Source: Candidatus Saganbacteria bacterium (lineage in GTDB: Bacteria > Margulisbacteria > WOR-1 > JAKLHX01). Taken from it: 32,000 nt of DNA. The notes under the pieces were generated by a model. The model was not told the DNA's origin. It was given only the letters and a program-made list of their open reading frames with translations, and ran no database searches. The position numbers and the translations under genes were made by a program. The stretch covers positions 16,234 to 48,233 of the forward strand of contig JAPLKZ010000004.1 of NCBI GenBank assembly GCA_026387835.1, read 5' to 3'. Each line of letters opens with the position of its first letter. The first letter of the stretch is position 1. Of this stretch, positions 5,936-24,095 are shown in pieces.

Positions 5936-8095
5936 ATGGAAAAGATAACAATGGTCGGCGGGCTGGTCATCGATTACTTCTACCAAAGGTTGAGAGAAAT
6001 AGATTTTGTAAGGGATATGAAAATGGACGGCGTCATAACCCGTGAAGACCTGTCCGAGGCCGCAAAGAAAGGGATCCGCACATCCATACAGTTCAGCGAA
6101 GGGTCGACCTCGTCCTGCGACACGATACAAAAACTTTATCTGAAACTGCAGGCCCTGGACAAAGCGGACGGCAGACTGGACGGGGATATCAAAGCGCTCA
6201 GACCGAGCCGTGTATTGTTCATTCAGGGACGTCCGAAAATAACCTACATCCAGCTGGAAGTCGATGTCTTTATTTCCGATGAAAAAAAAGAGCTCATCCT
6301 GGCCAAAGTCAACGCCGATCCTGATACTTTAAAGGAAATGGATCCTTCTTTAAAAAAAGACAAGGATTTTATATTAGAAGCCGTTAAACGTTCCGCTGCC
6401 GCAATGAAGTATGCGGATGCGTCCTTTAGTAAGGACAAAGAATTTCTTTTGACGGCCTTTAAATACAATCGGGATGTACTGAAATATGCGGATGTTTCCG
6501 TAAAGAAGGACAAATCATTCATACTGGCAGCTGTCAAAGAAAGCCGGACGGCTTTGGAAATCGCGGACGAAGCCTTAAGGAAGGACAAGGAAGTGATGCT
6601 GGCTGCCGTTAAACAGGACGGACATGCGCTGGAGTACGCAGATGCGTCCTTAAAGAAAGACAAAGAAGTAGTAAGGGCTGCTGCTGGACAAAACGCATGG
6701 GCAGCATTCTATCATGCGGATAGCTCTCTTAAGAATGACAAGGGTTTCATATTGGAAGCAGCGGGATTTTTTGGCGGGGTTCTTGAGTTCGCGGACGAGG
6801 CTCTGAAGAAGGACAAGGAAGTGGTATTGGCATGCGTCAAAGAAAACGGGCAGGCATTGATGTTCGCGGATCACTCCTTAAAAAGGGATAAAGATGTAGT
6901 AATTACAGCTGTCAAACAATATGGAAAAGCACTGCAGTCTTCATATCAATTATTAAACAATGATAAAGAAGTGGTACTGGCTGCTGTTAAACAGGACGGT
7001 GAAGCACTGTGTTATGCGGATGACCTCCTGAGGAAGGATAAAGAAGTTGTATTAGCGGCTATCAGGCAGAACAGCGATGCGTTGAAATATGCGGACGACC
7101 TGATAAGGAAGGATAAAGAAGTAGTATTGACTGCCGTTAAACAAAACGCAGCAACATTGGAGTTCGCGGATGAATCCTTATGGAAAGACAAAGATGTGAT
7201 AACTGCCAGCATACCGGGATTACAGAGCATTTTTGATTCGAACATGAGCGAAAAGGATTATCTGTCGCTGTTAGTATCGAACATGCTTGTCATGAGAAAT
7301 AATGAGGAGACCGACGCTTCGCTCGGATATAAAGCTCTTTCGGGAAGCGTGTTATTGTCATCGTACAGGACAGTTATCCGGCAGATAGAAAAGACCGGGC
7401 TCAGGGGTTTAAGCAATATAGACCCGGACTCAGCAGTAAAACTGACATCGACCATGGCTGAAGTATTTTTACGGGGCGGTTATTGGGCTACACAATCAAA
7501 GAACGTGGTCATGAGAGATGTCAGGCTTACCGAAATGTCCAAGAATTCGGCCGTATTGAGACTGCTTGCCCATGAGGGGAAGCTGAATCTCCGTTCAGAA
7601 ACAAGTTTTATTTTTGCATGGAGCCATGCACCTTCTATCTCCGTCAATCTCCCTTCAAATGTCTACTGGTATAAAAAAGACATCCCTGAACTCCGCGGGC
7701 TGCTGAACAGCAAATATGAGGTTTATAAGAACGCAGCTGCAAAAGCTCTTGAAAAGCTCGATAAGGAAGGCGTTGAAGATCAGGGGCTTGAAGCGGGAAA
7801 GAAACCTTCTCCTGAAAAGCTTCAGGCTCTTAGAAAGATGATGGAAAGCGATGATTGGACATTGAGATACAGGGCGCTTGAAGCTTTGCGTATCAGCGGT
7901 GCGGACACTGGTGAGTTTACACAGGAAATACTTAAGCTTTTTAATGACAAAGAATGGTATGTACACAACAGCGCGGCGCTCATCATCGAGAAAGACGGAG
8001 AAAAGCACATGGATTATTTAAATAAAGTTAAAAAAAACGGGTCCGAGTACGCGTCTTTTAGGGCCTTACAAATAATTTGGCCCGACAATAAATAA
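5936..8095 (+). CDS. Large repeat protein, paralog 3 (11 DUF4116-type repeats), same architecture
   Basis: 719-aa ORF starting 11 nt after the paralog 2 stop. It has the same N-terminal (ITREDL, IQKLYLKLQALDKADG), middle (LSSYRTVIRQIEKTGLRGLSNIDPDS) and C-terminal (NLPSNVYWYKKDIPELR ... DDWTLRYRALEALRISG) blocks. Confidence 0.85.
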   Translation: MEKITMVGGLVIDYFYQRLREIDFVRDMKMDGVITREDLSEAAKKGIRTSIQFSEGSTSSCDTIQKLYLKLQALDKADGRLDGDIKALRPSRVLFIQGRPKITYIQLEVDVFISDEKKELILAKVNADPDTLKEMDPSLKKDKDFILEAVKRSAAAMKYADASFSKDKEFLLTAFKYNRDVLKYADVSVKKDKSFILAAVKESRTALEIADEALRKDKEVMLAAVKQDGHALEYADASLKKDKEVVRAAAGQNAWAAFYHADSSLKNDKGFILEAAGFFGGVLEFADEALKKDKEVVLACVKENGQALMFADHSLKRDKDVVITAVKQYGKALQSSYQLLNNDKEVVLAAVKQDGEALCYADDLLRKDKEVVLAAIRQNSDALKYADDLIRKDKEVVLTAVKQNAATLEFADESLWKDKDVITASIPGLQSIFDSNMSEKDYLSLLVSNMLVMRNNEETDASLGYKALSGSVLLSSYRTVIRQIEKTGLRGLSNIDPDSAVKLTSTMAEVFLRGGYWATQSKNVVMRDVRLTEMSKNSAVLRLLAHEGKLNLRSETSFIFAWSHAPSISVNLPSNVYWYKKDIPELRGLLNSKYEVYKNAAAKALEKLDKEGVEDQGLEAGKKPSPEKLQALRKMMESDDWTLRYRALEALRISGADTGEFTQEILKLFNDKEWYVHNSAALIIEKDGEKHMDYLNKVKKNGSEYASFRALQIIWPDNK
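6356..7183 (+). repeat. In-frame 75-nt tandem coding repeats in paralog 3 (11 units, one of 26 aa)
   Basis: Counted from the translation (KDKDFILEAV ... FADESLW). A partial unit follows. Confidence 0.9.
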
Positions 8096-11286: not shown

Positions 11287-11871
11287 ATGCCTAAAAGTGC
11301 AATTATTAAGCAGAGGTTAAAGAATATAGGTGTTGAAAAATCCAACAATCTGATAATTTCAGCCGAAAGTATAGAAGGAAAGATATTTCTGAGCAGAGGT
11401 AGAAAAGTAATACTTGATGCAGATCTTGCATCATTTTACGGGGTATCTACCGGACGTTTAAATGAACAGGTGAAACGCAATATTAAAAGGTTTCCTGAGG
11501 ATTTTATGTTTCAGCTGACCCAGAACGAATACTTATCATTGCAAGATCTTTCTCCCGACTTGATATCGCAAAATGCGATGTCAAGTTATGGCGGCAGGAG
11601 ACATTACCCATTCGTATTTACTGAACAGGGAATAGCCATGCTTTCCGGCATTTTAAACAGCGAACGTGCCATCATGGTCAACATCGCCATTATGCGTGCG
11701 TTCGTGAAAATAAGACAGATAGTTTCTTTTAATAAGGAACTCGCACAAAAGTTTGCCGAGCTAGAACGCACGGTCGACCGTCATGACAAGGATATTATTG
11801 ATATCTTCAGGGCAATAAATAAAATAATAAAAGAAGAACAGAAGCCGAAGGCGAAGTTCGGGTTTATATAG
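11287..11871 (+). CDS. ORF6N (KilA-N-related) domain protein, phage/island-type DNA-binding protein
   Basis: Strong SD (AAAGGAGG) 6 nt upstream. The sequence LDADLASFYGVSTGRLNEQVKRNIKRFPEDFMFQLT ... GGRRHYPFVFTEQGIAMLSGILNSERAI matches my memory of the ORF6N family signature. Confidence 0.8.
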   Translation: MPKSAIIKQRLKNIGVEKSNNLIISAESIEGKIFLSRGRKVILDADLASFYGVSTGRLNEQVKRNIKRFPEDFMFQLTQNEYLSLQDLSPDLISQNAMSSYGGRRHYPFVFTEQGIAMLSGILNSERAIMVNIAIMRAFVKIRQIVSFNKELAQKFAELERTVDRHDKDIIDIFRAINKIIKEEQKPKAKFGFI

Positions 11872-13053: not shown

Positions 13054-14085
13054 TCATTTGGCACTATTCAACCCTCCTCTTCCTGCTGCCTGATATAACT
13101 CCTGAAATGTAAAACTTCTTGCACCCATAGCCCCATGTATTCCAAGTTTCCCCTTAGATATTGGCGTCAGAAATGCCTGGAATGGTTCCCCTAATAACAA
13201 GATCATCAATTCAGGGCTTCTGGTTTCATTGTATATTTCCTTTACAGCTTCTTTGTATTTATTGTGCCCTTTAGACTTTAAATATTCTTTTATTCCACTT
13301 CTTCTTAATACCTGAATATCTAATATTGGCGCTATCCAGGCTATTCCCGGCTCTATTTTTATCATTGATCTTTCTGCGAAGTCCTTTGGTGCACGACCAG
13401 TTAAATATGGAGCAAAATACATATTCCCCTGAGCCGACTTGAAGAATTTTGTTTGACTTTTATAAATATGATACTTAAAGAACAATTCAACTGAATCACC
13501 TTGTAGATCCCTCACATATACTTCCTTACGTTTTTTACTGCTCATATTATTTACCTCCATATAATTTTTAAATTCTTTTGCTATGTAATAAGCTGATTCA
13601 TCGATCGCTTTTGAGCTTTTGAATCTTAACAATTTAACGAATTCCTTATGAATGTCACTCCATGTAACATATTTTATCTCAACTCTCTTGGGAAGGCCCT
13701 CTTTAATATCTCGAATCCAACTCGTTGATTTATAAGAACCGTAATCGAGTAAATATAATGTCGTTCTTTTTTTACTTTTAACAATATTTTTAATATATCT
13801 TGCAATTTGTCTTTTCCTTTGTTTAAAATCGAGCTTTGCCTCAATGATGATATTTCTTCTGTCGGTCTCCATCACGATATCGTAGCGATCACTCTTTTGT
13901 GCGAAGTGCTCAATTCTTATCTTTATTATATGTTCTCTCTTTTCAAGAAAGATATTACCAATGCGATCTGGGAACATTTTTATAAAATATGCTATATAAG
14001 CGGTTAAGTTCGTCTCCTTCAGCTCACTTACTGCTGAAAAGAAGTTGTTTATATTTTCGGAGCCTCTTGTAAGTTCAATCGGCAT
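13054..14085 (-). CDS. Hypothetical protein with an N-terminal PD-(D/E)xK nuclease-like motif and an unknown C-terminal domain
   Basis: Its ATG at 14085 overlaps the hsdR stop (14075-14077) by 11 nt. The motif YDIVMETDRRNIIIEAKL gives a D...ExK spacing typical of restriction-endonuclease-fold proteins. The C-terminal ~150 aa are unassigned. Confidence 0.6.
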   Translation of the reverse strand: MPIELTRGSENINNFFSAVSELKETNLTAYIAYFIKMFPDRIGNIFLEKREHIIKIRIEHFAQKSDRYDIVMETDRRNIIIEAKLDFKQRKRQIARYIKNIVKSKKRTTLYLLDYGSYKSTSWIRDIKEGLPKRVEIKYVTWSDIHKEFVKLLRFKSSKAIDESAYYIAKEFKNYMEVNNMSSKKRKEVYVRDLQGDSVELFFKYHIYKSQTKFFKSAQGNMYFAPYLTGRAPKDFAERSMIKIEPGIAWIAPILDIQVLRRSGIKEYLKSKGHNKYKEAVKEIYNETRSPELMILLLGEPFQAFLTPISKGKLGIHGAMGARSFTFQELYQAAGRGGLNSAK

Positions 14086-17056
14086 TCTTCGTCACCTTTT
14101 TACTTACATAATCGAACAATTTCTGATTAACATATTCCTTCAAATCAATATTAGAGTCAAGCTTTTTATAGAAATCAAAATGCTGATTCAACATATTGAT
14201 CAGCTCCTGTTGAAAGATTTCATCAAACTTTATCTTTGCTACATCACGGGCATTGTTTTGTATGGATCCGCTCAATGATTCATTGTCTAATAGCTTTTTC
14301 CCTAAATTGTTCAATATAACCCTATCGTCTGTGCTAAAAGTTGTCCCAAATTTATCGTTAATATCCTTAATGATCCTCGAAAGCATGTCCAATTCATCCT
14401 GAGATTTGCCTCGCCCTGCTCCTTCAATTGGCCTGATCAACCCCTGTTCATCTTCAAGGAATATCCTGGTTTCTTTATCTTTGATGACCTTATATGATTC
14501 CATGTCAATACTTTGAAGTATTTCCCATGGAAGAGGATTCTTCCTCGCCGGCAATTTCTTATACAGATTCCTAAGAAAGATATAAAGTTTCTCAAGCCTC
14601 GTATCCTCAAAGGTTATTATTTGCGCGATAAACGCGTATTTTCTTATATAATCAATGAACTTGACGCGCATATCATCCTGTTCCTCCGGCAGATAATGCG
14701 CAAATCTCTCCGCAACAACATCAAGGAAACTGTTTAATTGGGCCGGACTTTTTCCTAGATAAAGCAACTCCACAAAGTTATCAATCTCGGCTTCGCTAAA
14801 TAGCCTGAAATTTAATATATCTCTTTGCAGATCGTGTAATAAATTGGGGTCCGTAGATTCCGAAAGGACGGTTGACACATAATAGGGCTGAAAAGATTCT
14901 TTAATATCGTCAGTATCGTTGACGAAATCCAGGACAAATACCTCATCTTTGTTAGGACATACCCTGTTTAATCGGCTTAATGTTTGCACAGCGTTTACTC
15001 CGCCAAGCTTTTTATCAACATACATAACCGAAAGCAGAGGTTGATCAAAGCCCGTTTGGAACTTATCCGCGCATATCAAGAATTTATATTCAGATTTTTT
15101 GAACTCTTCAGCCGTGTTCTTTTCAGGGATGCCGCCGTTCATCTGTTGTTCGGCATATTCAAGCTTACCGTCCTTCACCTTTCCCGAAAATGCCACCAAA
15201 GCTTTAAAGGGGTATCCTTTTTCTTTCAAATATTTATCCATGGCGATTTTAAATCGCACTGCATGCAGTCTCGATCTTGTTACTATCATTGCTTTTGCGT
15301 TGCCGTTTATCTGATGTGAAATATTTTTGGCAAAATGATCGGATATTATCGAAACCTTCTTATTTATTGCGTGCTCATGCTTCTCAACATAATTTAGAAG
15401 CATGCGCTGAGCTTTTTTCTTTTCATATTCAGGATCGTTCTCAATCTTCTTAATCAATGAGAAATAGACCTGGTATGTCGTGTAATTTTTTAACACATCA
15501 AGGATAAAGCCCTCCTCGATCGCCTGTTTCATCGAATAAAGACTAAAAGGATAGAATTTATTGTCAACAGGGCTCTTATCGCCGAAAACCTCAAGTGTCT
15601 TTTGTTTTGGAGTGGCTGTAAAGGCAAAAAAGCTTATTGTATTGGATTTTGATCTTCTTCCCCGCATTTCTTTGAGGATCATGTCTTCAAGTGTTTCTTC
15701 TTTGCTTGTATCATCCTCTCTTTCCGCCTCTTCCAGGGTCTCTTCTTCGTTTTCTTTACCCGAAGATTTGAGCACTATTTTCAGCCCTTTTGAGCTTTCT
15801 CCGCTTTGGGAGGAATGGGCTTCGTCAATTATCACGGCAAACTTTTTCCCGGGCAATTCATCGACAACTCCAACGATGAAAGGGAATTTTTGCAATGTTG
15901 TAGTTATAATCTTTTCACCGGCTTCAAGTGCTTCCTTTAATTCTTTTGAACCTTCTATTATCGGCTTTACCACACCGGCTGTCTGTTCAAACTGCATTAT
16001 TGTATTGCGCAGCTGCCTGTCTAAGACTCTTCTGTCTGTAACAACTATTACAGAATCAAATACTTTCTGATCTTCGCTATTGTGAAGCGCGGAAAGTCGG
16101 TGAGCTGTCCATGCGATCGTATTGCTTTTTCCGCTTCCCGCACTATGCTGGATTAGATAGTTTTTGCCAGCCCCGTTTTCTCTTGAATCCGCCACAAGCC
16201 TTTTAACCGTATCCAGCTGATGATATCTTGGAAAAATTAATGTCTCTTCCGTATATTTTTTGCCTTTTTGGTCTTCCTTCTCATCCTTTTGAATGTTCAC
16301 GAACCGGCCTACGAGCTCAAGAATGCTATCAGGAGATAACACTTCTTCCCAAAAGTAATGCGTTTTATATTTGCCTTCCGCGACAGGGTTTCCGGCGGAA
16401 TTATTATTGCCCTTATTGAATGGCAGGAATCTGGTCCTTAATCCCTCGAGCTTCGTTGTCATAAATACGACCTCAGTATCAACCGCGAAATGAGTCAGGC
16501 ATCGTTTGAATGAAAGAAGCTTTTCTCTCGGATCACGGTCTGTTTTGTACTGCATTATGCCATTCTTTACCGATTGGCCCGTCAACTGATTCTTGAGTTC
16601 TATCGTGAATATGGGCAATCCATTAATAAAGATCACCATATCTATTGAATTTTCGTTCTTTTCACTATATTTCAATTGCCGGACAACACTAAAGATGTTG
16701 GAATTATACTTTTGCAGTGTCTCTTCATTCAGCTTTGTTTCCGGCTTGAAATACGCGAGGTCAAATTTAATCCCATGATCATTTATTCCGCTGCGGAGCA
16801 CTTCCAATATCCCCCGCGCCCTTATTTCCTCGTCCAACCTCTTAAAAAACCGATTTTCCGCATCTTCCCCATGCTGATCAAGCAGTTTCTTCCATTCTTT
16901 ACTCTGTGTTTTCTTGATAAACCCGATGACTGTATCTTTGTCAAAACAAATCGCTTTATCAAAGTCGCCTGGTTTCAGTTTGCAATATGACTGGCTACTA
17001 ATAAGATGTTTTTCAATAAATTCTTCGAAACCGAGTTCTTTTGTATTAGTTATCAT
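14075..17056 (-). CDS. hsdR: Type I restriction endonuclease, R subunit
   Basis: 993 aa. The N-terminal nuclease motif is DMVIFINGLPIFTIELKNQ. Helicase motif I is HSAGSGKSNT and motif II is VIIDEAHSSQSG. It sits in one operon with hsdM and hsdS. Confidence 0.93.
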   Translation of the reverse strand: MITNTKELGFEEFIEKHLISSQSYCKLKPGDFDKAICFDKDTVIGFIKKTQSKEWKKLLDQHGEDAENRFFKRLDEEIRARGILEVLRSGINDHGIKFDLAYFKPETKLNEETLQKYNSNIFSVVRQLKYSEKNENSIDMVIFINGLPIFTIELKNQLTGQSVKNGIMQYKTDRDPREKLLSFKRCLTHFAVDTEVVFMTTKLEGLRTRFLPFNKGNNNSAGNPVAEGKYKTHYFWEEVLSPDSILELVGRFVNIQKDEKEDQKGKKYTEETLIFPRYHQLDTVKRLVADSRENGAGKNYLIQHSAGSGKSNTIAWTAHRLSALHNSEDQKVFDSVIVVTDRRVLDRQLRNTIMQFEQTAGVVKPIIEGSKELKEALEAGEKIITTTLQKFPFIVGVVDELPGKKFAVIIDEAHSSQSGESSKGLKIVLKSSGKENEEETLEEAEREDDTSKEETLEDMILKEMRGRRSKSNTISFFAFTATPKQKTLEVFGDKSPVDNKFYPFSLYSMKQAIEEGFILDVLKNYTTYQVYFSLIKKIENDPEYEKKKAQRMLLNYVEKHEHAINKKVSIISDHFAKNISHQINGNAKAMIVTRSRLHAVRFKIAMDKYLKEKGYPFKALVAFSGKVKDGKLEYAEQQMNGGIPEKNTAEEFKKSEYKFLICADKFQTGFDQPLLSVMYVDKKLGGVNAVQTLSRLNRVCPNKDEVFVLDFVNDTDDIKESFQPYYVSTVLSESTDPNLLHDLQRDILNFRLFSEAEIDNFVELLYLGKSPAQLNSFLDVVAERFAHYLPEEQDDMRVKFIDYIRKYAFIAQIITFEDTRLEKLYIFLRNLYKKLPARKNPLPWEILQSIDMESYKVIKDKETRIFLEDEQGLIRPIEGAGRGKSQDELDMLSRIIKDINDKFGTTFSTDDRVILNNLGKKLLDNESLSGSIQNNARDVAKIKFDEIFQQELINMLNQHFDFYKKLDSNIDLKEYVNQKLFDYVSKKVTKNAD

Positions 17057-17415
17057 TAGCCCACATCCAAAGGATGATAATTTTGCTTATTAATACCTTT
17101 CAATTGAGTATTCAGCTTGCTTCTTTCGTCTGCTGACATATTATCAATCCACACACCAAATTTAATCCTACTAACAGTAGAATTCTTATTATCTCGATTT
17201 ATGTCCCCGCCTGCTTCAACAAACTGCAATACTTTCACCCCTGCCTTCCCGGACTTTGAGGTTGTTTCTTCAACTGATACCGCAATATCAAATTCTACAT
17301 GTCGATTTTCTGGACTTCCGTATATTTCGATTATTTGATGTGCTTCTATTGTAGCCTCCTTAACTGCCGAAGTTATATCCACTAGCACTTTCTTGATAAA
17401 TTCTTTAAGTTCCAT
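17056..17415 (-). CDS. Small protein (119 aa) resembling the trypco2-type (trypsin-co-occurring domain 2) conflict-system domain
   Basis: It overlaps the upstream gene by 11 nt, and its stop overlaps the hsdR ATG (TAATG). The layout is an N-terminal helix (LKEFIKKVLVDITSAVKEA) followed by VEFDIAVSVEETTSKSGKAGVKVLQFVEAGGD...STVSRIKFGV. That matches my memory of trypco2. The assignment is not verified. Confidence 0.5.
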   Translation of the reverse strand: MELKEFIKKVLVDITSAVKEATIEAHQIIEIYGSPENRHVEFDIAVSVEETTSKSGKAGVKVLQFVEAGGDINRDNKNSTVSRIKFGVWIDNMSADERSKLNTQLKGINKQNYHPLDVG

Positions 17416-18391
17416 GATTATTGATCTCCTTTTGTTTTGCTAAGTATGACAGAACAAAGTCCTTCCATTTTTCGTACCAGTACCATCTGTCTGGTAATTG
17501 AAAACCATATCCTTTTGATGTCTCCTTTGCATTATGTTGTTTCCATATTCTATAGTGTTTTGCAATATTAAAATCATCGAATCCTGCCTTATGAGCTTCT
17601 TCAACGATATTTTTAGGCAAGTACTTCCTTTTCTCAGTTTCCTCTTTAACCCAGTATTCTCTCTTGATATTTTCGGCAAGGGGTGATTTAGGATCAAGAA
17701 ATTCAATTACTCGATCAGCCTGCCCTGCTCTTTTTGCTATGACCTTTGTAAATAATATTCTATAGGCATATCTTTCGCTTATGATTTGATCTTCAGATAA
17801 TGTACTATCAAATTTAGCTATATATGATTTTATCTCCTGTGGTATTTTATTGTCTTTATCCCTAATAGTTTTTGATTGTGAATAATCAAGCTCAGCAAAT
17901 TGCAAGCTCAATGCCAACATATTGTCCAATCCATGTCTATCACCGAATAGTTTTTTGATGTAATAGTTAAAGTTTATTGCACACGCCTGATATCTAGCAG
18001 ATAGGTACGAATCCAAATGGTTAGCTTTCCTATGCTCAATTTGATTTCTTAACCCTATTAGAAATTTGAGATTATTAGTCGTGTCAACATCAAGAGGGCG
18101 GTTTTCTTCATCGAGACAACTTGTTAAATCCCAATATTTAACACTACCATCTTTATTCTTTTTAAACTTTTTCCTTTTGTTTCTCTTCTCATAATATCTG
18201 TAATCTATCGATTTACTCCTATAGTACGCGTGAAGAAGATATGTCCAGGCAATCATGAAGAGCACAATAAAAGACTCCGACTTAAATGTTGTTAGAGGAT
18301 TGTTATATATTTGAACAGCAGCCAGAGCAGATTCTCTCGCTTTATTGATTAAATCAACTTTTTCGGAATACAGATGTCTTTCCTTTGACAT
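17405..18391 (-). CDS. DUF3644-like protein (328 aa) embedded between hsdS and hsdR
   Basis: The ATG at 18391 lies 5 nt after the hsdS stop and directly follows AGGGGGA. The N-terminal ALAAVQIYNNPLTTFKSESFIVLFMIAWTYLLHAYY resembles the DUF3644/Abi-like helical N-domain signature as I recall it. The assignment is not verified. Confidence 0.5.
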   Translation of the reverse strand: MSKERHLYSEKVDLINKARESALAAVQIYNNPLTTFKSESFIVLFMIAWTYLLHAYYRSKSIDYRYYEKRNKRKKFKKNKDGSVKYWDLTSCLDEENRPLDVDTTNNLKFLIGLRNQIEHRKANHLDSYLSARYQACAINFNYYIKKLFGDRHGLDNMLALSLQFAELDYSQSKTIRDKDNKIPQEIKSYIAKFDSTLSEDQIISERYAYRILFTKVIAKRAGQADRVIEFLDPKSPLAENIKREYWVKEETEKRKYLPKNIVEEAHKAGFDDFNIAKHYRIWKQHNAKETSKGYGFQLPDRWYWYEKWKDFVLSYLAKQKEINNHGT

Positions 18392-18396
18392 TCCCC

Positions 18397-19719
18397 CTAC
18401 ACCTCCACCTTCCCCGTCACTACATTTGAAATGATTGAGGATTTGTATTCTTGAAGCAGGGATATCGATTTGCCAATTTTATCTGCAAGAGCATCAACTT
18501 TGGACAGCTCATTCTTAATGTGTTCCGATATTTGTTCTTGGATATTTGTATCGGGAAATGCAATTCGAATATTCCCGATAAAATCCCAGCTGGCTCTTGG
18601 CATTTTTGCCCCATATGTAGAGTTGTCAACAAGTGATAAGAAGTCATCTGAAAGGACTCGACAAAAGAGATATTGTGAATTAATTTTATCCCTCCGTGGC
18701 TCCATGACAAGCAGTTCGCCGGTACAGATACCATCAAAATCCGGAAGAAGTGCTTTTGCCAGATATGGCCTTAATTTATTAAAAAGTACATCCCCAAGCT
18801 GAAATTCATTCGTTATGCTGTCTGGGTCTTGTTCAATTTCACTCTCCAAATATCGACCTGTAAAACTTTCAATGTTTTCTAATGCGAGATATTTCTTGTT
18901 GTTATCTGGGCTCTGACTTCTACGGAGATTTACAATATACTTCAACTTCTCCACCCGCCACCCCTCCGGCACTTTCCCGATCCACTCAATCCCGCTATCA
19001 ACAAGTTTGGCTTTTGAATCAAGCCCTCTTGTCACCGCCTGATTTATCACCGCCGCACGCTTTTCTTTGAGGAGCTCAATTAGCTTGCGTTTTTGTTCTA
19101 ATATTTGATCAATCAAGGCGGTTTTTTGGTCAAGGAATGAGACAATGTGCGATTGAATTTCTATAGCTTGCGTGGGAATTACTACTTGATTAATGGTTCC
19201 CCGGGAAATATTAACAAGTCCTGAGCTTGTTAGCCCCAAATAATTTATTTGCTCTCTTCCTAATACATTATTTAAGATGTAATAGAGTAACTTTGGATTT
19301 ATTTCTTTATTGACTCTGAGCCTTTGAATAAAGTTTGAAAAGACGCACCCATCACTAGCAACTTCTTTTGTGACAATAGCAGTTTTACCAATATGATACT
19401 CACTTCCACTAGATTTAACGATGAGAAGATCGCCCTCCAGCAATTTTGCTTTCTCGATTTCTAATTTGCTTAATAATCTTGTTGCAGGGTTATCGATTTT
19501 TAGATCCCCATCCATATCGATCTCAGTGGACCTTAATACAATTGTCCCCTGTCCAAGCGGATCATCATCACCCCAAACCCCACCATCGTTATTAATAAGT
19601 TTATGTATTAGTCGATCAGATTTCCACGTACCGGGAATCTTTCCAATCCATTCAATTCCTGAATCTTTGTATTCAGGATATCTTTTGTGCTGTTTTTTGA
19701 ATTTGATTGTTTGTGCCAT
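18397..19719 (-). CDS. hsdS: Type I R-M specificity subunit with two target-recognition domains
   Basis: 440 aa with duplicated half-structure. SGIEWIGKIPGTWKSDRL and SGIEWIGKVPEGWRVEKL open the two TRDs. The conserved central helix is LIDQILEQKRKLIELLKEKRAAVINQAVTRGLD, and the C-terminal helix is LLQEYKSSIISNVVTGKV. Confidence 0.92.
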   Translation of the reverse strand: MAQTIKFKKQHKRYPEYKDSGIEWIGKIPGTWKSDRLIHKLINNDGGVWGDDDPLGQGTIVLRSTEIDMDGDLKIDNPATRLLSKLEIEKAKLLEGDLLIVKSSGSEYHIGKTAIVTKEVASDGCVFSNFIQRLRVNKEINPKLLYYILNNVLGREQINYLGLTSSGLVNISRGTINQVVIPTQAIEIQSHIVSFLDQKTALIDQILEQKRKLIELLKEKRAAVINQAVTRGLDSKAKLVDSGIEWIGKVPEGWRVEKLKYIVNLRRSQSPDNNKKYLALENIESFTGRYLESEIEQDPDSITNEFQLGDVLFNKLRPYLAKALLPDFDGICTGELLVMEPRRDKINSQYLFCRVLSDDFLSLVDNSTYGAKMPRASWDFIGNIRIAFPDTNIQEQISEHIKNELSKVDALADKIGKSISLLQEYKSSIISNVVTGKVEV

Positions 19720-19721
19720 AT

Positions 19722-21755
19722 TTATAACTGCTTTAATAACTCCAAAAGCTCATTCTCGACCTTCTCAATATCCGTCTCGATCTCTTCAAGTGGTCTTGGT
19801 GGGGCATATTTGTAGAAATACCTCGTCAAAGGTATCTCATAGCCCACCTTTCCGATCTTTCCGTCCTTATGATCCCTGACATTTTCGTTTATCCATGCGT
19901 CAGGAACATATGGCTTTACTTCTTTTAAGAAATATTCATGGATATCCTGGCCATACGGCACATTTTCCGTATCTCTCAACTCGCTGTCCGGCTCAATATT
20001 TCCTTCTTTATCCTTGCATGGATCCGCAGTATCATCTCTCTCTGACAACTCCTGCCAGATAATCTTAAATATATTAGCCAGAACGTTAATCTTTGACTTC
20101 TCAAGTATCCTTTCTATATCAGTTATGAATTCTTCGCGATTTTTATACAGTATCTTTGGAGCATTATCCAAGCATAAAATAATATTGTCCCTTAACCTTT
20201 GCCATTCTTTGTTTTCCTTATCGCCGGCGGCACCTTTCTTCTTGCTTGGGGTGTCATTTGAGAATGTTTTGTTTTCCTGAAGCCTTTTCATTCGTTCTTC
20301 ATTCACCTGGAAGTTAAGCTTAAGCGGCCGCTCGATCACTATCTGCCTATACGCAAAATCCGTAGTTTTTAATGTTTTTGAATGTTCACTCTCTGCATAG
20401 CGTTTGTAGATATCGTAAATATCTTTCCTGTTTGCAGGAGATATCATGTTCCTCTTATTCCCGAGCGATTTCCTCATTTTTTCATAAAATGACCTCGCAT
20501 CGATCAACTGCACCTTGCCTTTTCGTTTTGCGTCCTTTCTATTAGTCAAGAACCACAGATAAGTATTAATGCCCGTGTTATAGAATAATTGGTCCGGTAA
20601 AGCCACTATCGCCTCAAGCAGATCCTTTTCAAGGATCCATCGTCTTATTTCGCTTTCTCCCGAACCTGCATCCCCAGTAAAAAGCGGAGAACCATTTAAA
20701 ACGATCGCGATACGGGATCCGCCATCGCTCGGATTTCGCATCTTTGAGATCAAATGTTGAAGGAAAAGCAGCTGTCCGTCAGATATTCGCGGAAGACCCG
20801 CACCAAATCTGCCCGCATAACCCCGCTCCGCCTCTTTTTCGACCGCTTCCTTGTCCTTTTTCCAGTCAACACCGTAAGGAGGATTAGTCAGACAATAGTC
20901 AAATGAGGTTCCTGCAAATTGTTCGCAGGAAAGCGTACTTGCTTTTGTGTTGTCCTTGTCGCCGCCTTTGATATTATCCGGATTTTCAGCCTTTATCATC
21001 ATGTCTGATTTGCAGATCGCGTATGTTACGGGATTTAATTCCTGTCCGTATAGGTAAATGGCAGCTTTCTCATTTATATTCTCTAATATATGATCTTTGC
21101 TTACAGTAAGCATACCGCCGGTACCGCAGCAACAGTCGTAAACAGTTCTAATTTTATGTTTTTGTTTGAGCTGCTCTTTATCCGGAGCAAATAGTATCTC
21201 AACCATAACTTTAATAACTTCCCTCGGAGTGTAATGTTCTCCTGCGGTTTCGTTCGATTGCTCATTGAATTTTCTTATTAATTCCTCGAAAATATAACCC
21301 ATTTCGTGATTGCTAACCGTTTCGGGATGCAGGTCTACTTTATTGAACTCCTTTATTATGAGGTATAGAAGGTTGCCGCCTTCAAGACGCGACAGCTGTT
21401 TTTCAAAGTCGAATTTTGCAAAGATTTCCTTAACGTTGTCGCTATAACCATTTATATGGTGGCGTAAATTCTTCGCTATATTCTTCGGATCTTCAAGAAG
21501 CTTTTCAAAATCATATGGCGAGATATTGTAGAAGCCCAGGCTTGATGCCTTCAATATTGGATCAATGTTAACTTTACCTTTGTATTTATTATGCTGAGCC
21601 ATGATCTTTTCTTTTACCTTTGAAAAGATCGAGTCAAGACGTTTGAGCACGACTAAAGGAAGGATCACATCTTGATATTCATGTTGTTTCCAGCCCCCTC
21701 GCAGTAGCTCAGCTATATTCCAGATTAATCCCGCTTTTGTATTGAAATTGTTCAT
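19722..21755 (-). CDS. hsdM: Type I R-M N6-adenine DNA methyltransferase subunit (long form, 677 aa)
   Basis: HsdM_N-like N-terminus (LIWNIAELLRGGWKQHEYQDVILPLVVLKRLD). SAM-binding motif I is DCCCGTGGML. Catalytic motif IV is LTNPPYG. A GGAGG SD lies upstream. Confidence 0.93.
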   Translation of the reverse strand: MNNFNTKAGLIWNIAELLRGGWKQHEYQDVILPLVVLKRLDSIFSKVKEKIMAQHNKYKGKVNIDPILKASSLGFYNISPYDFEKLLEDPKNIAKNLRHHINGYSDNVKEIFAKFDFEKQLSRLEGGNLLYLIIKEFNKVDLHPETVSNHEMGYIFEELIRKFNEQSNETAGEHYTPREVIKVMVEILFAPDKEQLKQKHKIRTVYDCCCGTGGMLTVSKDHILENINEKAAIYLYGQELNPVTYAICKSDMMIKAENPDNIKGGDKDNTKASTLSCEQFAGTSFDYCLTNPPYGVDWKKDKEAVEKEAERGYAGRFGAGLPRISDGQLLFLQHLISKMRNPSDGGSRIAIVLNGSPLFTGDAGSGESEIRRWILEKDLLEAIVALPDQLFYNTGINTYLWFLTNRKDAKRKGKVQLIDARSFYEKMRKSLGNKRNMISPANRKDIYDIYKRYAESEHSKTLKTTDFAYRQIVIERPLKLNFQVNEERMKRLQENKTFSNDTPSKKKGAAGDKENKEWQRLRDNIILCLDNAPKILYKNREEFITDIERILEKSKINVLANIFKIIWQELSERDDTADPCKDKEGNIEPDSELRDTENVPYGQDIHEYFLKEVKPYVPDAWINENVRDHKDGKIGKVGYEIPLTRYFYKYAPPRPLEEIETDIEKVENELLELLKQL

Positions 21756-21765
21756 TTTGCCTCCA

Positions 21766-22905
21766 TTACTTTTTAAATAGATTAATATACTCTGTTAAAG
21801 AGAATATTCTGTTTCTTGAATAACCTGTCTTTTCTTTGAATAATCCCAGTTTTTCAAACTCTTTTGCCAATGTACTCGCTGTCTGGAATGTCACAGGAAT
21901 CATTTTTCCAATTTCATGTACTGTTACCGTCGGTTTAGAGAACAGCTTATGAAGAAGCTGCTTGCCGAGCTTTTGCCGTTTTATCCCCATCCCAGACTCA
22001 ATATTATCCTCATATTTTCTGCGCAATACAATTATTTTCTCAAATGTTTCTTTCCCCTTTTTAGCTGTTTCCGCAACTCCCGAAAGAAAGAACCTAATCC
22101 ATTGTTCAAGATCATTTGAGACCCGCACCTTTGACAGGGCATCATAATATTGAATTCTATTCTTTTCGAAGTAATCTGACAGATAAAGTGTGGGCTTCTT
22201 TAATATTCCCAAGCTTACAAGATGAAGCGTTATTAACAGCCTTCCTATTCTGCCGTTGCCATCAAGAAATGGATGGATAGTTTCAAATTGATAATGAACT
22301 AAAGCCGTTTTGATGATATCCGGTATATTTGTCTTATCATTATGAATGAATTTCTCGAGATCTCCCATTAGGTCATTCAATTCATTATATTGTGGAGGCA
22401 CAAATGAAGCCTCCTCGATCGTTCGGCCACCTATCCAGTTTTGCCTAATCCTAAACTCCCCAGGATTTTTGCTGTATCCGCGAACCCCAGACAATAATAT
22501 GCCGTGTGCGTCTTTTATCAACCTTATTGAAACCGGCAGATGACGCAACTGCTCTATCGCATGGTTAATTGCTTTGATATAATTTTGAACTTCACTCCAG
22601 TCGTCCCTTTTATCAGGATCAACATCATTTTTGGGCAATAAAGCCTCATCAATGTTGGTTTTGGTACCTTCTATTTGGCTTGATTGTGTAGCTTCCTTTA
22701 AAACGTGCATTTTGATAAAAAAGTCAACATCAGGGACTAGCGTGGAATAGGCGTCAAGCTCACCCAAGTACCGCATCGCTTGTGCTAATAACAGATCGAT
22801 CTTCTTGTCCTGCCAGTCAAATGGTTGGTTTATAGATGTAGGAGTAAAGGTTTTATGCTTTCCTTGACTCTTATAATGGCCTGCGATATACTTTGAATAC
22901 TTCAT
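21766..22905 (-). CDS. fic: Fic-family protein (AMPylase-type) with an N-terminal inhibitory motif and a C-terminal winged-helix-like region
   Basis: The Fic core motif is [18 protein letters not shown] matches the (S/T)xxxE(G/N) intramolecular inhibitory helix motif. The track start at 22938 is a TTG lying inside the predicted promoter/TSS. I prefer the ATG at 22905 ([11 protein letters not shown]), which is preceded by AAGGCGGA. Confidence 0.85.
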
Positions 22906-22912
22906 AATCCGC

Positions 22913-22940
22913 CTTTGAATACTATTATTTATATTCAAAG
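22913..22940. promoter_or_regulatory. Palindromic operator-like site O2: CTTTGAATA-N10-TATTCAAAG (perfect), overlapping the -10/TSS and 5'UTR
   Basis: Read directly from the sequence. The half-sites are 22913-22921 and 22932-22940. An additional half-site CTTTGAATA sits at 22891-22899, inside fic codons 3-5 (counted from the 22905 ATG). Confidence 0.55.
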
Positions 22941-22988: not shown

Positions 22989-23945
22989 TCACCCAAAATC
23001 CACCACCTGAAACGCATTCGTCTCCTTCTTCCCTATATGCTCCATCGTCATATATTCTTTTCTGAAAGGGTCCGTCTGCCAGTATTTGAAGAAGGCATCC
23101 GGCTTTTTAAACTTTGAGAATATAAACCGCGCTGTTTTTGTGGCCCGGTCCATTATCGCAGGGATCTCCTTGAAATCAAAAGGATGCACATCAAAGATGC
23201 CAGGATTGATGATCCTTACTGCTATTTTTTTCTTCAAGAAGATATCATCATTGATATATCTGTTGATCTGTGAAAAAGAGGTCGTCAAATCCAGACATTG
23301 CATGAAAACGTCCATGATGTTCTTTTTGTTAAAATCCCCTTTAACTTGACCACAATAGCCCAGATCGCACGCGATAATCCTTTTAACCCCCGCAATCCTT
23401 GCCGCAACCGATATTGGGCAGTTTTCTCTGATCCCGCCGTCGGCAAGAGCCATAACTTTGTTACCAATCTTTATTTTTTTGGGTTTAAAGATAACAGGGA
23501 ATGATATTGACGCTTCAAGGGCCTCGGTCAGTCGACAGTCGTCTGTAGACTGACGACTGCCAAATATTACTTGCTTCCCCGAATTCAAGTCCGTCGCCGT
23601 AATATAGACCGGCTTCTTTAGATCTCTGAATGTCATCCCCGTGAATCCCGCTTCTTTAGCGATAAGGTCGATGGTTTCCTTTGATTCAAGCAACCCGGCA
23701 TGCGAGAACAGGTCAAACGCGAGCATCTGCGGCCATATATGCTTCTTTATAAATTTAAGCGATATCTCTTTGACTGTCTTAGGCTCGTCGTAAAGACCGA
23801 GCATCACTGCAAACACCGCACCTATCGATGTGCCAACGAAGATATCGGGGACATATCCCTTTTTATACATTTCCTCGGCAATGCTTATATGTGCGGCGCC
23901 TTTGACGAAGCCGCCGGAGAGGACGAGGGCAAGGTTATTTTTCAT
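22989..23945 (-). CDS. Patatin-like phospholipase
   Basis: The oxyanion motif is SGGFVKG, the nucleophile elbow is GTSIG (GxSxG) and the catalytic Asp motif is ADGG. The track start at 23984 is TTG. I prefer the ATG at 23945 (MKNNLALVLSGG). Confidence 0.85.
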   Translation of the reverse strand: MKNNLALVLSGGFVKGAAHISIAEEMYKKGYVPDIFVGTSIGAVFAVMLGLYDEPKTVKEISLKFIKKHIWPQMLAFDLFSHAGLLESKETIDLIAKEAGFTGMTFRDLKKPVYITATDLNSGKQVIFGSRQSTDDCRLTEALEASISFPVIFKPKKIKIGNKVMALADGGIRENCPISVAARIAGVKRIIACDLGYCGQVKGDFNKKNIMDVFMQCLDLTTSFSQINRYINDDIFLKKKIAVRIINPGIFDVHPFDFKEIPAIMDRATKTARFIFSKFKKPDAFFKYWQTDPFRKEYMTMEHIGKKETNAFQVVDFG

Positions 23946-24095
23946 GATTATCTGAATTATGTAATATTTATCCGGAAATATCAATTATGCTTGCAGACTA
24001 AATATGCCTTGACTGTGCTAATATTTAAAGCTGCCATAAAAAAGTCTTAAAAAAACCGTTAAATTATCGGTATATAGTAATAAGGAGGGGTTGCG

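Follow-up and report, generated by a model that had tools for sequence, protein, structure and literature searches.

Proteins of the DUF3644 family were placed in the HEPN ribonuclease (RNase) superfamily, as the EC042_2821 family, by Anantharaman et al. (2013, PMC3710099), where the family was also said to occur in operons of restriction-modification (R-M) systems. One DUF3644 protein, HEC-08, provides phage defence, which is abolished by mutation of His128 of its Rx4-6H motif, and the study in which it was reported takes embedding in type I R-M, BREX or DISARM as the defining feature of the PDC systems (Payne et al. 2024, bioRxiv 10.1101/2024.01.29.577857). A DUF3644 or DUF4145 HEPN domain is also found in the Ishtar (ist1/ist2) anti-plasmid proteins, joined to a C-terminal domain of no known function (bioRxiv 10.64898/2026.07.06.735840). 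SsPepco, a protein of 117 amino acids with an amphipathic basal helix, pre-assembles as 9-10-mer β barrels and forms a membrane pore once an adjacent protease cuts its charged tail after Ile97 (Evans et al. 2025, bioRxiv 10.1101/2025.11.14.688446). In Actinobacteria and cyanobacteria, genes of the Pepco/Trypco2 family to which it belongs typically have Avs/STAND/VMAP proteases as neighbours (10.1101/2025.11.14.688446; Kaur et al. 2020, PMC7159879). The subject of this report is a type I R-M operon in a window of 32,000 nucleotides (nt) from Candidatus Saganbacteria (contig JAPLKZ010000004.1), in which a DUF3644 gene (ORF328) and a small gene whose family resembles Trypco2/Pepco (ORF119) lie between hsdS and hsdR. 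With a probability of about 0.7, these are two separable embedded defence-type genes at this junction, encoding a predicted HEPN RNase and a predicted latent Pepco-like membrane toxin.

The two genes between hsdS and hsdR

The operon is an uninterrupted run of seven genes on the minus strand, which are listed here in their order of transcription together with the HEPN motif of ORF328.

21766-22938, minus strand: Fic/SoFic-type gene, first gene of the operon (Pfam Fic_N and Fic; PADLOC SoFic, E=2.4e-115)
19722-21755, minus strand: hsdM, methyltransferase subunit (Pfam HsdM_N and N6_Mtase)
18397-19719, minus strand: hsdS, specificity subunit (Pfam Methylase_S, two stretches)
17405-18391, minus strand: ORF328, DUF3644/HEPN protein of 328 amino acids (Pfam DUF3644; PADLOC PDC-S19)
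18032-18049, minus strand: HEPN motif R115-N-Q-I-E-H120 of ORF328 (codons AGA AAT CAA ATT GAG CAT)
17056-17415, minus strand: ORF119, candidate Trypco2/Pepco-family small protein of 119 amino acids (Pfam Trypco2, sub-threshold); its homologs are called T2 below
14075-17056, minus strand: hsdR, restriction subunit (Pfam HSDR_N, SWI2_SNF2, ResIII and T1R_D3-like; PADLOC REase_I)
13054-14085, minus strand: PD-(D/E)XK_4-like gene of 343 amino acids, last gene of the run (Pfam PDDEXK_4, E=3.6e-5)

An earlier note on this DNA, made from its letters, had described two open reading frames of 328 and 119 amino acids between hsdS and hsdR. This arrangement stands, with HsdM, HsdS and HsdR confirmed by Pfam, and both peptide strings quoted there are present in the two frames. 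The junctions are also as described: ORF328, its stop included, overlaps the start of ORF119 by 11 nt (17405-17415), and the TAA stop of ORF119 (17058-17056) shares one base with the ATG of hsdR (17056-17054), giving TAATG. ORF328 follows the end of hsdS after a gap of 5 nt, and each of the two genes has its own Shine-Dalgarno-like sequence ahead of its ATG (GGAGGTG for ORF328; AAGGAG, 10 nt ahead, for ORF119). Both are real, conserved genes, because ORF328 has more than 3164 homologs; for ORF119 there are 193 close ones, about 115-119 amino acids long, and a profile search with its family through 1.84 billion representatives matched 3002 small proteins. The stoichiometric co-expression with the restriction subunit that had been deduced from the overlaps is not supported, since overlaps are common in this compact operon, where the PD-(D/E)XK_4-like gene and the stop of hsdR also share 11 nt. 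The best explanation is that ORF328 and ORF119 are co-transcribed with the R-M genes, yet do not form an obligate pair.

At the sequence level, ORF328 is unambiguously a DUF3644 protein, as had been proposed (Pfam PF12358, E=9.5e-55, 185.5 bits against a gathering score of 27.6), with residues 14-197 matching model positions 2-182 of 183. It also matches the PADLOC model PDC-S19 (PDLC04948) from residue 2 to residue 323 (model positions 3-323 of 325, E=7.2e-131). In an alignment of 40 homologs, conservation extends over the full length (59-78% identity), R115 and H120 of the Rx4H motif RNQIEH are invariant and N116 is nearly so. The statement that neither protein has an obvious catalytic motif is therefore wrong for ORF328. 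Foldseek searches with AlphaFold2 (AF2) models, a check suggested in the earlier note, gave a partial answer: the ORF328 model (predicted local distance difference test score, pLDDT, 77) found HEPN toxins as its best matches in the PDB, weakly (E=0.3-2; HepT 7bxo/5yep/6m6u and AF_0298 2hsb), while the ORF119 monomer model found nothing meaningful.

The C-terminal region of ORF328 (about residues 255-328) is a Trp-rich α/β region with a conserved WYWY motif, modelled by AF2 as two helices, a hairpin and a long helix. The only cysteines of the protein are C92 and C137, with zero CxxC pairs; a zinc-ribbon domain was not found by the Pfam scan, nor was an ATPase domain by the Pfam and PADLOC scans, and NCBIfam gave zero matches for ORF328 and ORF119 alike. 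ORF328 is most likely a latent HEPN RNase effector, with the Rx4H motif as its predicted active site; the conserved C-terminal region probably serves to regulate the protein or to sense its target. The position of the gene would mimic that of PrrC-type guards, and by analogy we infer a positional functional analogue of the PrrC-type HEPN nucleases of type I R-M operons. ORF328 as such is already known: PADLOC lists it as a candidate, and experiments on HEC-08 have validated its domain.

The assignment of ORF119 to the Trypco2/Pepco family is supported at the level of its clade and is not airtight for ORF119 itself. The Trypco2 model (PF19631) is matched by 42 of 65 close relatives (best E=3.9e-6) and by 25 of 49 distant ones (best E=8.9e-9), and the PF19631 annotation was already precomputed on some of its relatives. 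The same model matches SsPepco (sequence from the supplement of bioRxiv 10.1101/2025.11.14.688446) with E=5e-18, and of its 78 positions ORF119 covers 2-73 and SsPepco 1-77. The family alignment has the invariant pattern EFD..A...E...G..G...G...SR..FG. According to AF2, ORF119 consists of an N-terminal helix (residues 2-25), three strands (39-50, 58-68 and 80-91) and a C-terminal tail of 29 amino acids. The helix is amphipathic, with a hydrophobic moment of 0.40, the value also obtained for SsPepco; the strands have moments of 0.62, 0.29 and 0.61, and the tail is 28% charged (family mean 35%). The monomer model is of low confidence (pLDDT 62) and poorly defined in the hairpin region, as would be expected if the protein were an obligate oligomer.

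Residue I90 of ORF119 is conserved (Ile in 47 and Val in 17 of 65 sequences) and cannot be aligned with the cleavage-site residue Ile97 of SsPepco. In the tail, residues 94-97 of ORF119 are S-A-D-E, where the family has the motif T94-K95-x-E97 (T in 59, K in 53 and E in 59 of the 65). A comparison of the ORF119 profile with PDB sequences returned ribosomal L24/L26 only, at chance level, and in PADLOC v2 the only match of ORF119 was a chance-level one to LmuC. A viral origin was also considered and rejected, with zero relatives in IMG/VR.

Pairing and independence at the junction

The hsdS-hsdR junction had been presented as a classical slot for embedded defence genes, and this agrees with PDC-S19, which is defined by embedding in R-M systems. 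The further question of whether homologs always sit there has a negative answer. In a sample of 80 metagenome loci with ORF328-like genes, 13 are placed at the junction and the majority are outside R-M, and in a sample of 78 loci of the ORF119 family, taken from species-representative genomes (185,579 species genomes), 14 are inside type I R-M operons, as are three of five homologs looked up individually. The two genes also rarely meet. T2 lies downstream of DUF3644 in 2 of the 80 ORF328-like loci (L089 and L090, whose contigs are those of L085 and L088), L087 being a third distinct case besides L085 and L088, and a DUF3644 neighbour was found in 0 of the 78 ORF119-family loci. DUF3644 stands alone between hsdS and hsdR in L095, L150, L151, L158, L160, L164, L165 and L167, and T2 is the sole gene at the junction in L007 and L011 (hsdS-T2-hsdR). 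The proposed two-gene cassette thus finds no support in the distribution of the genes, each of which is far commoner without the other and occurs alone at the same junction.

A comparison of HsdR sequences placed all DUF3644 plus T2 pairs in one clade, 58-94% identical to the HsdR of the window. The content of the junction within this clade is as follows.

DUF3644 and T2: four loci (the window, L085, L087, L088)
DUF3644 only: L095
T2 only: L011
DUF2441 and T2: L003/L010
SduA_C-like gene and T2: L012
T2 and Fic: L050
DUF3644 and a gene for an unrelated 148-amino-acid, Cys-containing protein: L170 (1836-2282)
DUF3644 and a gene for an unrelated 205-amino-acid protein: L171 (3058-3675)

In L170 and L171, the unrelated small genes occupy the place of ORF119, between DUF3644 and hsdR. 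Each gene is found alone or with other partners at the same junction. The simplest reading is that the two are independent modules, and that in this HsdR clade the hsdS-hsdR junction serves as a mix-and-match slot into which effectors are embedded. Throughout this R-M clade the Fic/SoFic gene keeps its place upstream of hsdM, and its gene order is shared by L085, L087, L088, L003, L011 and L012. No flanking repeats or insertion scars were found around ORF328 and ORF119, where a single weak direct repeat of 30 nt (70% identity) was seen. A separate origin was also sought in the guanine-plus-cytosine content, and the difference (0.33-0.36 for ORF328 and ORF119 versus 0.38-0.44) was too slight to indicate one.

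Neighbourhoods of the ORF119 family and rival explanations

The hosts of the 78 ORF119-family loci are mostly Patescibacteria, that is, the candidate phyla radiation (CPR), Omnitrophota and Saccharibacteria. In the R-M operons the position of T2 varies: in some it precedes hsdR, and in others it separates hsdM from hsdS (hsdM-T2 order in L031, L032 and L036). T2 also occurs, placed after hsdM, in R-M lineages whose HsdR is 22-26% identical to that of the window (L015, L022, L024, L031-33 and L036), and in MerR-HsdM operons (L172, L173). About 80% of the loci are outside R-M. Defence-type neighbours on the same strand include DUF2441, Shedu SduA_C-like, HEPN_RiboL-PSP, DUF4145, AbiEii, HNH, YhcG and NYN genes, a CAP12-type TIR gene, and MazG with a fusion of an SLFN helicase to Peptidase_S24. 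Methylases are a further group of neighbours, and dnaK (six loci), gyrA and rmlD are housekeeping ones. The helicase-S24 fusion is the only protease-type neighbour seen in the family. A neighbour-joining tree of the ORF119 family, in which R-M-embedded members are interleaved with the others, is poorly resolved and carries no weight. A PADLOC census of the neighbours was dominated by HsdS models and uninformative. In L072 and L077 the ORF119 domain appeared to be fused to long open reading frames; both cases were left out of the count because the upstream parts have no Pfam domain and the frames are probably over-extended gene calls.

T2, a MazG-like gene and an SLFN-group-3 helicase with a C-terminal Peptidase_S24 recur together in L014 (8001-10760), L017, L052, L056 and partly L029, in an order that changes between loci; the helicase fusion was checked by Pfam in L014 and one further neighbour, and assigned by sequence clustering in L017, L052 and L056. 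These three genes could constitute a defence system of their own. In six other loci, from CPR, Bdellovibrionales and Peribacteria (L034, L037, L038, L040, L042 and L043), T2, at about position 8001 or 4509/3687 of the locus, lies 24-59 nt downstream of a canonical dnaK (HSP70, E about 1e-243 to 1e-267), and an upstream gene seen repeatedly there is a candidate grpE. An ORF328 homolog, P0146, is encoded downstream of a GrpE-HSP70 (837 amino acids)-AAA cluster.

Several observations weigh against the reading of ORF328 and ORF119 as separable genes, the second of them a latent Pepco-like toxin. The Trypco2 likeness proposed in the earlier note holds for the family, while ORF119 itself falls below the threshold of the model (17.6 bits, E=0.0045, against a gathering score of 24.2). 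The alignment of the ORF119 profile with the single SsPepco sequence by hhalign is weak (E=0.03-0.07), which leaves the Pfam model as the basis of the homology. A peptidase gene was found neither in the window nor in any of the R-M-embedded ORF119-family loci examined. T2 genes beside dnaK, gyrA and rmlD make a non-defence role possible. The members of the DUF3644 plus T2 pairs are tightly spaced, with the 11-nt overlap or gaps of 1-9 nt, and ORF119-family genes adjoin HEPN proteins of three families (DUF3644, RiboL-PSP and DUF4145), which leaves room for some cooperation. The recurrence of the tight pair in four loci, the variety of HEPN neighbours and the translational coupling of ORF119 to hsdR would all suit a single functional cassette, a sensor with its adaptor or an effector with its partner, that couples the status of HsdR to a toxic output. 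This explanation is nevertheless unlikely. All four pairs belong to one HsdR clade (62-94% identity), so that common descent of one operon lineage suffices to explain their recurrence; the genes part company at that same junction, and no fusion of the two was found among the homologs collected for either protein. In addition, ORF328 has a catalytic motif of its own, and the DUF3644 proteins HEC-08 and Ishtar work as single genes.

It is quite unlikely that ORF119 is no toxin and instead serves the type I R-M enzyme in an accessory or regulatory capacity, as a subunit acting for example in HsdR assembly, HsdR stability or restriction alleviation. Such a role would be in keeping with its embedding in two or more unrelated lineages of type I R-M operon, with its place directly before hsdR in one clade, stop and start overlapping or nearly so, and with the absence of a protease partner. 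However, the variable position of T2, the large share of loci beside dnaK, MazG/helicase-S24, AbiEii, HNH, TIR or methylase genes rather than R-M genes, the lack of T2 in L095 (from the same HsdR clade) and in most type I operons, and the homology of ORF119 to a pore-forming family all speak against it. The dnaK loci, together with gyrA, rmlD and glycosyltransferase neighbours, could also be taken to indicate that these small proteins have a housekeeping or stress function in CPR-type bacteria, where they would be associated with dnaK operons and present in R-M only incidentally. This is very improbable for a family with such a patchy spread (78 loci among all the species genomes), with highly variable neighbourhoods that show no conserved synteny beyond small groups, and with repeated insertion into R-M and defence contexts.

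Under the preferred reading of two separable defence-type genes, ORF119 would, by homology and by the architecture it shares with SsPepco, assemble as a small β barrel. As in SsPepco, this barrel would be held inactive by the charged C-terminal tail, whose removal or displacement would let it damage the membrane. With no dedicated protease encoded, a housekeeping protease might act as the trigger, or a partner might displace the tail. In the type IA and IB systems of Escherichia coli, ClpXP degrades HsdR during restriction alleviation. From this case a protease link to R-M is conceivable; for the operon of the window it is pure speculation. A wider proposal, tentative and rather doubtful, is that the ORF119 clade comprises Pepco pore-formers that are independent of proteases or triggered by those of the host, and that have repeatedly been wired into type I R-M operons as back-up membrane effectors that would fire upon inhibition, degradation or stalling of the restriction complex. 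They would then be a new class of R-M guard, distinct from the HEPN/ABC nuclease guards PrrC and RloC.

The rest of the window and comparison with known systems

The last gene of the run, the PD-(D/E)XK_4-like gene, has weak PADLOC matches to PDC-S26 and PDC-M15A and is probably a further embedded or appended nuclease-type defence gene of the same operon. In related operons the position after hsdR is taken by DUF4268, GmrSD or other genes, and in L085 a patatin-like phospholipase gene lies downstream of hsdR. Other features of the window are the following.

22967-22939, minus strand: promoter-like site (11 of 12 positions matching), just ahead of the Fic/SoFic gene
22989-23984, minus strand: patatin-like phospholipase gene, just upstream of the SoFic-type gene
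11287-11871, plus strand: gene with an ORF6N domain (KilA-N/antirepressor-like), near the defence island
5936-8095, plus strand: gene for a 719-amino-acid protein with seven DUF4116 repeats and HEAT repeats, farther from the island

ORF328 adds little to what was known, as a clear-cut instance of the HEPN candidates that have been catalogued within R-M operons. The recurrence of a protease-less Trypco2/Pepco clade in type I R-M operons is, in contrast, not represented in PADLOC v2, and no description of it was found in the literature searched. So far, Pepco/Trypco2 has been understood as a protease-licensed pore-former, whereas the ORF119 clade, with no linked protease, is embedded in type I R-M across several lineages. 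Its hosts are mainly CPR-type bacteria, which are under-sampled by RefSeq-based surveys. If proteins of this family are active toxins, the question arises of what licenses a Pepco barrel in the absence of a dedicated protease, and the idea of guards of restriction would come to include membrane effectors as well as RNases. The junction of the HsdR clade, for its part, offers a natural series of mix-and-match embedded genes in which the functional effect of embedding can be tested.

Among the known systems, PDC-S19 is the closest to ORF328, which matches its model end to end and, by its embedding in a type I R-M operon, shares the feature that defines PDC systems; PDC-S19 is a bioinformatic candidate described as a single gene, without an ORF119-like partner. 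HEC-08 shares with ORF328 an N-terminal DUF3644/HEPN domain with the Rx4-6H motif, but it holds zinc-finger/zinc-ribbon-like domains at its C-terminus, where ORF328 has the Trp-rich region. Compared by description, the Ishtar proteins likewise combine an N-terminal HEPN domain with a C-terminal α/β domain in one protein; contrary to ORF328, their genes are described as standalone and not R-M-embedded, and their phenotype is the loss of plasmid RP4. PrrC and RloC are also HEPN RNases encoded within type I R-M operons (prrC between hsdS and hsdR), kept latent under the R-M enzyme and released by anti-restriction. They are fusions of an ABC ATPase with the HEPN domain, while ORF328 lacks an ATPase domain.

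For ORF119, the comparison is with Pepco. The ORF119 clade differs from it in having no adjacent gene for a trypsin-like or caspase-like peptidase, and in its occurrence in type I R-M operons, mostly of CPR/Patescibacteria, Omnitrophota and relatives. Nevertheless, at clade level the two belong to the same Pfam family and are of nearly the same size (119 versus 117 amino acids), and ORF119 presents the amphipathic N-terminal helix, amphipathic β strands and charged, disordered C-terminal tail that characterize SsPepco.

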